A stretch of DNA of 64,000 nucleotides from the sequence record PV295200.1, one strand, 5' to 3'. This DNA is from Escherichia phage vB_Eco_BCPEco_001. The translations under genes were made by a program, and so were the position numbers. Every line of letters starts with the position of its first letter. Positions within the stretch are counted from its first letter, which is position 1. This document shows positions 55,683 to 57,905 of the stretch, piece by piece. The notes under the pieces are model-generated. The model saw nothing but the letters and a program-made list of their open reading frames with translations. It was not told the origin of the DNA and did no database searches.

Positions 55683-55972
55683 TAATGATTCTTTATGCTA
55701 AAGTATCATCCATTGAAAATGGATATAAATATGATCAAGAAGCAGCTAAAGCCTTGATTGATGATTATGGCATTTTAACCTGTTTTGAAGTTGAAAAGGT
55801 TTACATTGACCGTTCATCTTCTCAAGTTAAATTAGTGAAGGAAGACCGTAAATTTAATACAGTAAATTTTGATTTCTTTATTGAAACGGAAAAAGGTCCT
55901 CTTGAATATAATATTTTCAAGAATCCTTTGGGTCTTGAATGTATCGTAAATACGTATTATCATAAATGGTAA
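55679..55972 (+). CDS. hypothetical protein (97 aa)
   Basis: ORF overlapping upstream stop. Confidence 0.5.
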   Translation: MIMILYAKVSSIENGYKYDQEAAKALIDDYGILTCFEVEKVYIDRSSSQVKLVKEDRKFNTVNFDFFIETEKGPLEYNIFKNPLGLECIVNTYYHKW

Positions 55973-56069
55973 ATATGCTTTAAGAATTATTTGTTATTAT
56001 TAACTCATACCGCACTGATTAATACCCTCTATCATCAAGGGTTCTTGTTAGAGAGCCTTTGTTAATAAT

Positions 56070-56142
56070 TGGGAATTAGCCAAGTTGGTAAGGCATAGCA
56101 CTTTGACTGCTAGATGCAAAGGTTCGAGTCCTTTATTCCCAG
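56070..56142 (+). tRNA. tRNA-Gln (anticodon UUG)
   Basis: Cloverleaf: acceptor TGGGAAT/ATTCCCA, anticodon loop CTTTGAC, T-loop TTCGAGT. Confidence 0.85.
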
Positions 56143-56143
56143 C

Positions 56144-56230
56144 GCGAGAATGGTCAAATTGGTAAAGACACAGCACTTAAAATGCTGCGGAATGATTTCC
56201 TTGTGGGTTCGAGTCCCACTTCTCGTACCA
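56144..56230 (+). tRNA. tRNA-Leu (anticodon UAA), long variable arm, CCA encoded
   Basis: Acceptor GCGAGAA/TTCTCGT, anticodon loop CTTAAAA, T-loop GGTTCGAGTCC, 3' ACCA. Confidence 0.85.
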
Positions 56231-56236
56231 AAGTTT

Positions 56237-56308
<72 letters not shown>

Positions 56309-56320
56309 AAATTTAATTTA

Positions 56321-56394
56321 CTTCGTGTAGCTCAGTTTGGTAGAGCGTCTGCTTTGGGAGCAGAATGTCGCAGGTTCAAATCCTGCCGCGGAGA
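56321..56394 (+). tRNA. tRNA-Pro (anticodon UGG)
   Basis: Anticodon stem-loop TCTGC-TTTGGGA-GCAGA, T-arm GCAGGTTCAAATCCTGC; acceptor with two G-U pairs. Confidence 0.8.
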
Positions 56395-56396
56395 CT

Positions 56397-56483
56397 GGAG
56401 GCGTGGCAGAGTGGTTTAATGCACCGGTCTTGAAAACCGGCAGTCGCTCCGGCGACTCATAGGTTCAAATCCTATCGCCTCCG
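56397..56483 (+). tRNA. tRNA-Ser (anticodon UGA), long variable arm
   Basis: Acceptor GGAGGCG/CGCCTCC, anticodon loop CTTGAAA, T-arm TAGGTTCAAATCCTA. Confidence 0.85.
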
Positions 56484-56490
56484 TAATTTC

Positions 56491-56563
56491 GCTGATTTAG
56501 CTCAGTAGGTAGAGCAACTCACTTGTAATGAGAAGGTCGGCGGTTCGATTCCGTCAATCAGCA
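56491..56563 (+). tRNA. tRNA-Thr (anticodon UGU)
   Basis: Acceptor GCTGATT/AATCAGC, anticodon loop CTTGTAA, T-arm GGCGGTTCGATTCCGTC. Confidence 0.85.
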
Positions 56564-56569
56564 TATCAA

Positions 56570-56641
56570 GGCCCTGTAGCTGGAAGGTTCAAGCAAGCGA
56601 CTCATAATCGCCAGATGGTGGTTCAATTCCACCCAGGGCCA
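56570..56641 (+). tRNA. tRNA-Ile (anticodon CAU, presumably lysidine-modified) or tRNA-Met
   Basis: Acceptor GGCCCTG/CAGGGCC, anticodon loop CTCATAA; T4 tRNA-Ile is known to carry a CAU anticodon. Confidence 0.8.
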
Positions 56642-56682
56642 TATTTTGAGAACATAAATACTCTTAGAAATAGGAGATATTT

Positions 56683-57348
56683 ATGTTCTATTACATTTAT
56701 AAAATAACAAATAAAATTAATAATAAAATCTATATAGGCGCTCATTCTACCGAAAATTTAGATGATGGATATATGGGTTCTGGTAAATTATTAAAAAGAG
56801 CCCAAGATAAGTATGGTATAGAAAATTTTTCTAAAGAAATATTAGAGTATTTTGACGATAAAACCTCTATGTTTGAGTCAGAAAAGAATATTGTGGCTGA
56901 AGAGTTTTTAAAGCGCCCTGATGTTTATAATTTGAAATTAGGTGGTGAAGGTGGTTGGGACCATTTAAACACTAAAGAATATTTGGATAAAAAGAAAGAA
57001 GCTTCCTTAAAAGGAGCTGCCGCTTTTAAAACCAGATTTGAGAACGACCCAGACCTTAAAGAAAAATATCGTAAAATGGGTTCAGAAAGGTTTAAACAGC
57101 TTTGGGATAATCCTAAGTATAGAGAGAAATTTTTAAATACTAAATCTTTCTTGGGTAAGACCCATACTCCTGAAACTATTAATAAAATGAAAGAATCTCA
57201 CGCCAGAAATAAACACCAACAAGGTGAAAAGAATTCCCAATTTGGTATGATGTGGATTCATTCATTAGATGAAAAAGTTTCTAAACGTATTAAGAAAACT
57301 GACCCAATTCCAGAAGGATGGTTTAAAGGTCGAAAAATGAAATTTTAA
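56683..57348 (+). CDS. segB: GIY-YIG homing endonuclease, SegB-like
   Basis: 221 aa, N-terminal YYIYKITNKINNKIYIGAH...DGYMGSG motif; embedded in tRNA cluster as T4 segB. Confidence 0.85.
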   Translation: MFYYIYKITNKINNKIYIGAHSTENLDDGYMGSGKLLKRAQDKYGIENFSKEILEYFDDKTSMFESEKNIVAEEFLKRPDVYNLKLGGEGGWDHLNTKEYLDKKKEASLKGAAAFKTRFENDPDLKEKYRKMGSERFKQLWDNPKYREKFLNTKSFLGKTHTPETINKMKESHARNKHQQGEKNSQFGMMWIHSLDEKVSKRIKKTDPIPEGWFKGRKMKF

Positions 57349-57351
57349 TTA

Positions 57352-57428
<77 letters not shown>

Positions 57429-57775
57429 AACAAGAAGCCGGGTCGCTACCGGCAAGTCGTCGGACTGATGTTCCCTGAGTAAGGACTGGCATTAATAAAT
57501 CTTTATGTTTTGTTAATGCCCCCTTATATCACAGCAGAAACGGCGCACCGAATTATCGATTCGAGGAAATATCTTTGCCGTAAGCCGAGTAGCGTTTTTG
57601 ACGGAACGTTCGGATATGGTCAAGATATGGCCTTTTAAAAATATTGAGTAGCGTCAACTGCTTAATAACCGGGTTCGAATCCCGGCGTTTCGTACAAACA
57701 CTTGCCTTAGCAGGTGGAACCCCGACAAGGTTGCCGCAAGGCTCAGTCCCGACCGAAAGGTTGGGGCTTTTTAGT
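57429..57775 (+). ncRNA. structured non-coding region, likely T4-type small stable RNAs (species 1/2, RNA C/D); boundaries approximate
   Basis: About 350 nt without an ORF directly after tRNA-Arg, several strong hairpins including a tRNA-like T-arm CCGGGTTCGAATCCCGG, ending in a terminator. Confidence 0.45.
57748..57772 (+). terminator. terminator ending tRNA/stable RNA transcription unit
   Basis: CCCGACC-GAAA-GGTTGGGG hairpin followed by CTTTTT. Confidence 0.6.
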
Positions 57776-57905
57776 ATCTAGGCCTTTCCGGGCCTCTCTA
57801 GGCATCATTTAGTTTATACCCTTTATAATATATTATCCTACCTTTTAATTGCCCCTCCTGACCCTAGAATTCCCTAAAACTTTTTAAAAATTTTTTCACA
57901 AAACT

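Follow-up and report, generated by a model that had tools for sequence, protein, structure and literature searches.

The species 1 and species 2 RNAs of phage T4 have been known since the 1970s, and RNase III cleavage of species 1 RNA as well as a dimeric precursor have been described (neither is used as evidence here). In the T4 genome (AF158101), two genes are annotated directly after tRNA-Arg, namely rnaD (species 2 RNA, 119 nt) and rnaC (species 1 RNA, 139 nt), and the genome of RB33 (KM607001) is annotated likewise, again directly after tRNA-Arg. The T4 cluster is transcribed from a middle promoter just upstream of it into a ~1.75-kb transcript, which terminates after species I and is the precursor of eight tRNAs and of the species I and II RNAs (PMC2330249). 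RNAC of T4 has been seen on a Northern blot as a discrete RNA that accumulates late in infection (PMC9697503). The function of rnaC and rnaD was stated as unknown in papers of 2010, 2022 and 2025 (PMC9697503 and PMC12685909 among these), and we found no later functional claim for either RNA in the literature.

rnaD and rnaC downstream of tRNA-Arg

We analysed a 64,000-nucleotide (64-kb) stretch of Escherichia phage vB_Eco_BCPEco_001 (PV295200.1), referred to below as the window; all positions are those of the window, and the elements from tRNA-Arg to the terminator all lie on its + strand. The window is a 100% match to Shigella phage SHFML-11, a T4-like phage of the genus Tequatrovirus. The GenBank record of SHFML-11 holds no annotation from tRNA-Arg to the next CDS. 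Eight tRNA genes are found at 56070-57428 (ARAGORN and Rfam), the last of which is tRNA-Arg(UCU) at 57352-57428 (called by ARAGORN, 73.2 bits with the Rfam tRNA model). The first-pass annotation, made from the letters alone, had flagged 57429-57775 as a structured non-coding region following this tRNA and as the probable counterpart of the two stable RNAs of T4.

The structured and non-coding character of the region was confirmed. As compared to dinucleotide shuffles, the + strand folds with z-scores of -3.64 (57430-57549), -4.04 (57556-57694) and -3.39 (57695-57780), and none of the 200 shuffles folds as well, whereas the - strand reaches z-scores of only -0.48 and -1.37; the structure of 57430-57780 is thus above chance, and on the + strand only. 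The three hairpins that had been singled out are all present: 57437-57453 holds GCCGGGTCGCTACCGGC, 57488-57520 is a long A/U-rich hairpin (GGCATTAATAAATCTTTATGTTTTGTTAATGCC), and 57669-57685 holds CCGGGTTCGAATCCCGG. No ORF longer than 45 aa overlaps 57429-57775, in keeping with the earlier remark that no plausible ORF is found there, and the longest of them, with TTG or GTG as start codon, cross the boundaries of the elements described below.

The boundaries of the two RNAs, which had been thought impossible to set from the sequence alone, were obtained by homology transfer, using a three-way alignment of the window, T4 (AF158101) and RB33 (KM607001); the mature ends given here are the T4 annotation carried over by homology. 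By this alignment, rnaD (120 nt) occupies 57430-57549 and starts 1 nt after the 3' CCA of tRNA-Arg, and rnaC (139 nt) occupies 57556-57694, with an A/U-rich 6-nt spacer (GAAUUA, 57550-57555) in between. The rnaD of the window shares 88.1% identity with that of T4 over 118 nt, and rnaC shares 97.8% identity over 139 nt. With covariance models of the two RNAs (their E-values are rough), model R2 (rnaD) gives 140.6 bits at 57430-57549 and model R1 (rnaC) gives 162.6 bits at 57556-57694, each being the sole match of its model in the 64-kb window. Judged by these sequence comparisons, rnaD and rnaC of the window are the orthologues of T4 species 2 and species 1 RNA, respectively. The T4-counterpart reading is therefore correct, because the annotated genes of T4 and RB33 map here and each model has one match.

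The two loci are alike in the position and lengths of the RNAs (119 and 139 nt in T4, 120 and 139 nt in the window), and the gene order (tRNA-Arg, rnaD, rnaC, trailer, terminator) is identical. They differ in several positions at the tip of the apical hairpin of rnaD, in the 3' end of rnaD (...CACCA in T4 vs ...CACCG in the window), and in the upstream tRNA-Arg, which in the window is a different allele that cannot be aligned with that of T4.

rnaC is followed by a conserved 3' trailer (57695-57744; 93% identity with T4), which consists of a near-invariant block at 57697-57731 containing a hairpin (57699-57716), and then a small variable hairpin. The block is almost invariant across Tequatro-, Dhaka- and Gaprivervirus, also at loci without rnaC, and both the small hairpin after it and the terminator show compensatory changes in relatives. 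The intrinsic terminator of the tRNA/segB/stable-RNA transcription unit lies at 57745-57773 (a 10-bp stem at 57745-57768 with six G-C pairs and a GAAA loop, and a T run to 57773), close to where it had been placed (57748-57772). The flagged interval does contain both RNAs, but its last ~80 nt (57695-57775) are trailer and terminator and belong to neither of them. It is very probable that the interval comprises the rnaD and rnaC stable non-coding RNA genes, followed by the trailer and the terminator that close the tRNA-segB unit. The two RNA genes and the operon terminator are an already known feature, found here in a close relative of T4.

A covariance-model search against RNA family databases had been proposed as a check, and it returned no rnaC or rnaD family, as neither RNA is represented by a family in Rfam 15; only tRNA-Arg passes the gathering threshold. 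Sub-threshold Rfam matches (E up to 10) include tRNA-Sec, isrK, a snoRNA and RT-6, and were treated as chance. The best Rfam match inside the interval is tRNA-Sec (16.3 bits vs a threshold of 47), anchored at the T arm of rnaC. The other proposed check, structure prediction, came out in favour: both RNAs fold beyond shuffles, on the + strand only, and with the covariation support given below.

Consensus structures of rnaD and rnaC

The rnaD alignment comprised 25 unique copies, taken from Tequatro-, Dhaka- and Gaprivervirus and also from two phages of the Vequintavirinae. The consensus (RNAalifold and pair counts) has 23 pairs, nine of which show compensatory changes, with related sequences counted as independent. 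In these pairs 97.7% of the cells are paired, as against 28-48% when the partners are slid, and the slid controls show 0-3 compensatory pairs. From 5' to 3', rnaD is predicted to consist of a 7-nt tail, the hairpin P1, a 2-nt linker and one long hairpin. P1 (57437-57453) is a 5-bp hairpin with the 7-nt loop GUCGCUA, is 100% paired in the 25 sequences, and has compensatory changes at three of its five pairs. The long terminal hairpin (57456-57548) is made up of P2, an internal loop, P3, P4 and an apical hairpin. P2 is near-invariant and pairs 57456-57462 (GUCGUCG) with 57541-57548 (CGGCG.CA); the internal loop, GACUGA (57463-57468) opposite GAAA (57537-57540), is invariant in the 25 copies. The apical hairpin (57477-57532, enclosing the hairpin at 57488-57520) is variable: at least four unrelated sequence types are found, each of which folds alone to one architecture, and diverged rnaD copies fold to the same architecture. 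Homologues are 120, 115 or 101 nt long. In this model, rnaD has a 5' hairpin and then a long one, whose core is invariant and whose tip can be exchanged.

Two known designs were considered for rnaD and rejected. As a CCA-ended tRNA-like RNA it fails at its 3' end, where ACC is followed by A in T4 only and the last C is A in four copies; for an acceptor/T minihelix, moreover, P1 stands on the wrong side of the terminal helix. A kink-turn at the internal loop was dismissed by inspection, the non-bulged strand being GAAA with no GA adjoining the stem.

GenBank phages, IMG/VR and metagenomes supplied the rnaC homologues, initially 19 and finally 27 unique copies, which come from Tequatro-, Karam-, Winkler- and Moonvirus. 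The RNAalifold consensus has 42 pairs, half of which (21/42) show compensatory changes, again with related sequences counted as independent. In rnaC 97.4% of the cells are paired vs 36-49% with partners slid by 1-3 columns; the slid controls show just 2-8 compensatory pairs, and no shuffle equals the observed values. One of the alignments used (A6) was fitted to the model.

The predicted fold starts with a 7-bp acceptor-type stem, in which CGAUUCG (57557-57563) pairs with CGUUUCG (57686-57692) through five Watson-Crick pairs and two U.U mismatches. Its third-position A-U pair is replaced by G-C in eight of 19 sequences, and the other four pairs are invariant. At the position of the D loop stands a long hairpin of ~60 nt (57569-57628), closed by a 3-bp stem and ending in the invariant apical loop UUGACG (57598-57603); four sequence versions of its stem are found, and helices 3-5 show compensatory changes in 12 of 19 pairs. 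A junction GG (57629-57630) stands just before the 3' strand of the 3-bp stem. At the anticodon-arm position there is a 10-bp arm (57642-57667; seven of the ten pairs with compensatory changes) with the invariant 6-nt loop CGUCAA (57652-57657). It is followed by a canonical T arm, CCGGG-UUCGAAU-CCCGG (57669-57685), whose middle pair is G-C, U-A or A-U. The T stem and the acceptor-type stem show one compensatory pair per helix.

Two long-range contacts can be proposed from this alignment. The loops UUGACG and CGUCAA are exact reverse complements, remain unchanged in all 27 unique copies, and are the only invariant runs outside the acceptor and junction segments; as a bare duplex they would have an energy of -5.5 kcal/mol. 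Their complementarity suggests that they form a 6-bp kissing contact, which covariation cannot prove because neither loop ever varies. The second contact concerns the junction GG at 57629-57630, a candidate equivalent of G18 G19 of tRNA that would contact the T loop at the elbow. GG occurs with U-U-C in the T loop in 24 unique copies and CG occurs with U-G-C in three, a joint change as expected from a tRNA-type elbow (G18-pseudouridine-55 and G19-C56), which may reflect one single evolutionary event. GAUUCGA in the 5' strand of rnaC could seemingly pair with the T loop, but this was rejected as a by-product of the palindromic TTCGAA, as the pairing is lost in T-loop variants.

The likeness of rnaC to tRNA (RF00005) lies in the 7-bp acceptor-type stem set directly on a 5-bp T stem with the 7-nt loop UUCGAAU, in the possible G18/G19-type elbow, and in a placement within tRNA arrays with tRNA-like spacers. 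rnaC is unlike tRNA in having a ~60-nt hairpin closed by a 3-bp stem instead of a normal D arm, a 10-bp stem with a 6-nt loop where the anticodon arm has a 5-bp stem and a 7-nt loop, two U.U mismatches in the acceptor-type stem, and no encoded CCA (...CGUUUCG-UACAAAC). No anticodon loop is found in the fold, and the Rfam tRNA model has no match on rnaC. ARAGORN calls a tRNA in three of 27 intact copies, with inconsistent anticodons, and in none of the 27 once the hairpin is deleted; the calls depend on a fortuitous pairing of ACGGAACG with the 3' end, which is lost in Karam-type and fGh-type copies. rnaC was therefore rejected as a true tRNA, and the 'tRNA-Met' (phage PG7) and 'tRNA-Phe' (ARAGORN, Pet-CM3-4) reported over rnaC homologues are artefacts. 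According to the model, rnaC is tRNA-shaped in part only, namely where the acceptor-type stem sits on the T arm.

In tmRNA, with its tRNA-like domain, and in the bacterial Y-RNA-like YrlA, a mimic of the acceptor/T arm is joined to extra domains unrelated to it, and tRNA enzymes act on these RNAs. The E. coli sponge RNA 3'ETS-leuZ, which is active in trans, comes from the 3' external spacer of a tRNA precursor. The likeness of rnaC to the former two is one of general design only; rnaC is not a tmRNA, for which the window yields no ARAGORN call, no tag reading frame and no Rfam match (E up to 10). rnaD resembles 3'ETS-leuZ in starting just after a tRNA 3' end, but it is much more structured and has no sequence relation to it, the likeness again being one of design only.

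Occurrence in other genomes

About 800 phage records match the region, and 679 of them cover at least 80% of it. The homologous records are mostly unannotated, have a spurious 'hypothetical protein' CDS on top, or occasionally carry tRNA calls. The two RNAs do not always travel together. Dhakavirus has tRNA-Arg, rnaD and the trailer without rnaC. In Karam-, Winkler- and Moonvirus, rnaC is found between two tRNA genes with spacers of 5-8 nt, and so it fills a 'tRNA slot'; the Karam- and Moonvirus arrays also contain a diverged rnaD-like element right after another tRNA, found only by covariance model (26-30 bits, E ~1e-6, a rough value). In Vequintavirinae (rV5-like) phages rnaD directly follows tRNA-Met or tRNA-Tyr, and it is present twice in phage A5-4. 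The rnaD core also matches RB69 and phages of Klebsiella, Raoultella, Erwinia and Pectobacterium. rnaD and rnaC are independent modules, always within phage tRNA arrays.

No rnaD- or rnaC-like sequence was found in 5,426 complete E. coli genomes. A scan of bacterial genomes with a loose gapped pattern gave 120 matches, about the number expected by chance, and none of the 100 tested fits model R1. One IMG/VR locus (L014) was discarded as a chance match of the pattern, without a T arm and with no tRNA genes nearby.

Biogenesis and possible roles

Upstream of tRNA-Gln, at 55974-56001 on the + strand, we found a middle-promoter consensus of the MotA-box type (TATGCTTTA, 12 nt, TATTAT; pattern match only), which is likely the start of the precursor transcript, in agreement with the middle promoter of T4 (PMC2330249). 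A late-promoter motif (TATAAATA) at 55724 is likewise a pattern match only. The host tRNA-processing machinery would then excise rnaD and rnaC from the precursor. RNase P would set the 5' end of rnaC as it does for the neighbouring tRNAs, taking as its substrate the 7-bp acceptor-type stem stacked on the canonical T arm. For rnaD, endonucleases probably cut the A/U-rich spacers that flank it, with GAAUUA (57550-57555) as a putative processing site, and an exonuclease probably trims it back to the terminal helix P2. With its start always 0-12 nt from the 3' end of a tRNA gene, rnaD effectively amounts to a structured 3' trailer of that tRNA.

A hint at function comes from phage BW-1. When BW-1 adapted to the host E. 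coli ECOR34, the sole shared mutation was a T-to-C change at 164264 (PMC12685909). That paper reads the BW-1 locus in reverse orientation. Read along the transcript, A is replaced by G at nt 76 of rnaD, whose partner is C66, and where the apical helix had a C.A mismatch it now has a C-G pair, a pair already present at 66/76 in the relatives G2540 and IME341. With the mutation the consensus-fold energy of rnaD goes from -24.8 to -31.0 kcal/mol (6.2 kcal/mol more stable), and the pairs of the long hairpin have a mean probability of 0.51 instead of 0.22. Because the sole convergent BW-1 SNP restores a helix pair, this argues that the fold of rnaD is of importance for growth on one host at least, the tie between SNP and phenotype being correlative.

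We tentatively favour a joint mode of action in which rnaC would be a non-decoding tRNA mimic, with a tRNA elbow and an acceptor/T limb and with its anticodon-position loop probably closed by the kissing contact, and both RNAs would bind a tRNA-recognising or other host or phage factor, with an effect dependent on the host strain and no base-pairing to mRNAs. A trans-acting mechanism of structured RNAs, which we regard as possible, is ranked above an inert by-product, a purely cis-acting element and an mRNA-pairing sRNA. If the RNAs were inert, i.e. spacers of the tRNA precursor that persist only through their tight folding and lack a function of their own, it would be easy to see why both sit exactly at spacer or trailer positions, why no function has been found in ~50 years, and why the T4 tRNA region has been described as not essential for phage development (PMC2330249). 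This is nevertheless unlikely, as the loops and junctions of rnaC and the internal loop of rnaD stay invariant while the surrounding stems vary, each RNA is kept alone in different genera and in another phage subfamily, and the helix-restoring SNP in rnaD is the sole convergent change in the host adaptation. The invariant loops also weigh on the idea that rnaC and rnaD act in cis, for 3' maturation of the upstream tRNA, protection of the operon 3' end or tuning of segB, since a simple structural barrier does not require them; moreover, late in infection RNAC builds up as an RNA species of its own (PMC9697503), and in Karamvirus rnaC stands mid-array, where 3'-end protection is needless. We hold a cis role to be improbable too, even though rnaD always directly follows a tRNA gene, the trailer and terminator stay conserved behind either RNA, and the whole unit is one precursor (PMC2330249).

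Recent papers loosely call the RNAs 'small regulatory RNAs' (PMC9697503), and the conserved single-stranded hexamers and loops could be taken for unpaired segments that base-pair with host or phage mRNAs. We think this quite improbable: the T4-derived 3' ends of rnaD (57549) and rnaC (57694) precede the sole terminator, so that neither RNA ends in the hairpin and U tail typical of Hfq-dependent sRNAs, the best-conserved loops of rnaC are complementary to each other and are not free seeds, and no target or chaperone has been reported in the literature. Hardly any weight is given to the view that rnaC is the remnant of a tRNA gene, a pseudogene carrying an insertion, and that small proteins are encoded in the region. 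It can draw on the T arm and acceptor-type stem of rnaC, on pipelines that call 'tRNA-Met' or 'tRNA-Phe' in some homologues, and on the 'hypothetical protein' CDS laid over the region in many GenBank records. But the constraint on rnaC extends far beyond its tRNA-like part (21 compensatory pairs and the invariant loops), and the ARAGORN calls begin inside the hairpin with inconsistent anticodons. As for coding, the ORFs have at most 45 aa and a TTG or GTG start codon, and they run over the borders between rnaD and rnaC and between rnaC and the trailer; the length differences among homologues are not multiples of three, and the neighbouring elements are not the same in all genera.

Apart from the favoured mode of action in trans, there is some chance, smaller still, that rnaD, and perhaps rnaC, are host-range or anti-defence decoys neutralising a factor of some host strains only. 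rnaC would then be a tRNA mimic of a 'self-capped' kind, the kissing contact sealing the loop at its anticodon position, and the swappable apical hairpin of rnaD would set specificity. The hints for such decoys are the BW-1 SNP, the anti-defence tRNA locus and the occurrence of rnaD in an unrelated phage subfamily. The tRNA/segB region of T-even phages reportedly supplies tRNA-Tyr against the Septu defence system (PMC13096335), and phage tRNAs evading anticodon nucleases are described in two other papers (PMC10264068, PMC11555353). Anti-defence phage tRNAs share their genomic neighbourhood with rnaC and rnaD, but they decode, replacing cleaved host tRNAs, which rnaC and rnaD cannot do; an anti-defence role of the two RNAs is put forward as a hypothesis only.

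Few non-coding RNAs without a known function are as old as species 1 and species 2 RNA. As far as the window is concerned, the outcome is a corrected annotation and no discovery. What the analysis contributes are covariation-backed structures for two RNAs without an Rfam family, candidate kissing and elbow contacts in rnaC, and a modular distribution in which rnaD crosses into Vequintavirinae. The adaptive SNP of BW-1, re-read as a repair of an rnaD helix, offers a testable phenotype for a 50-year-old question.

Annotation of the locus and its transcription signals

In most GenBank phage records, rnaC and rnaD (the orthologues of the T4 species 1 and species 2 RNAs, respectively) are either unannotated or overlain by a "hypothetical protein" CDS (e.g. 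RB69ORF150c), and such CDSs are annotation artefacts. The same holds for the 95-nt tRNA-Met that is annotated over part of rnaC in phage PG7 (positions 1054-1148 of its locus, L031), and for the 96-nt tRNA-Phe predicted by ARAGORN in Pet-CM3-4 (1054-1149 of its locus, L033).

Upstream of tRNA-Gln, the late-promoter consensus TATAAATA is found at 55724-55731, and a middle-promoter consensus of the MotA-box type (TATGCTTTA, 12 nt, TATTAT) at 55974-56001; both are pattern matches only. Downstream of rnaC, the 3' trailer contains a 35-nt block, AACACUUGCCUUAGCAGGUGGAACCCCGACAAGGU (57697-57731, including a hairpin at 57699-57716), which is nearly invariant in Tequatro-, Dhaka- and Gaprivervirus, even at loci that lack rnaC. 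In many relatives the terminator T run leads straight into the late-promoter sequence TATAAATA, after which come an ORF of 474 nt and then the terminator once more (in the loci L001, 2020-2536; L010, from phage BW-1, 1887-2398; and L011, 1885-2401). This insertion is absent from the window (57769-57800) and from T4.

Internal repeat and SegB motif in rnaC

Two copies of the 9-mer GAGTAGCGT are present in rnaC (57588-57596 and 57646-57654), one per hairpin arm, and the GCGUUUU strand of the hairpin is similar to the 3' strand GCGUUUC. From their sequences, these likenesses may be the vestige of an internal duplication, and it is because of them that ARAGORN proposes a spurious alternative acceptor pairing in rnaC. 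The published cleavage motif of SegB, RAWTSGAAC (PMC13096335), matches the T-arm DNA (57673-57681, GTTCGAATC) in reverse complement, so this neighboring homing endonuclease may cut within rnaC. Such cutting could account for the behavior of rnaC as a movable cassette.

Apparent exchange of tRNA-Arg and of rnaD

The tRNA-Arg(UCU) gene of the window (57352-57428) cannot be aligned with T4 tRNA-Arg(UCU), even though its neighbors, segB on the upstream side and rnaD on the downstream side, closely resemble their T4 counterparts; RB33 carries the same allele as the window. Apparently, one isoacceptor gene cassette has been exchanged for another at this site. Elsewhere in the cluster, 56570-56641 is tRNA-Met(CAT) according to ARAGORN and the SHFML-11 record, and its T4 homologue is annotated as tRNA-Ile.

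The report of the convergent BW-1 SNP (PMC12685909) sets rnaC upstream of rnaD and describes this SNP as lying at "position 41 in the 3' end", an orientation that is the reverse of the transcribed sense. Read in the transcribed sense, the SNP (L010 1574, i.e., record position 164264) is nucleotide 76 of 115 in rnaD, where it restores a C-G pair.

Copies of rnaD are also present in Vequintavirinae (rV5-like) phages (1105-1205 and 1999-2118 of locus L029; 2005-2105 of locus L030). Phage A5-4 has two copies, which differ in their apical hairpins and each lie directly 3' of a tRNA gene. This distribution therefore implies horizontal exchange of rnaD between unrelated phage groups.
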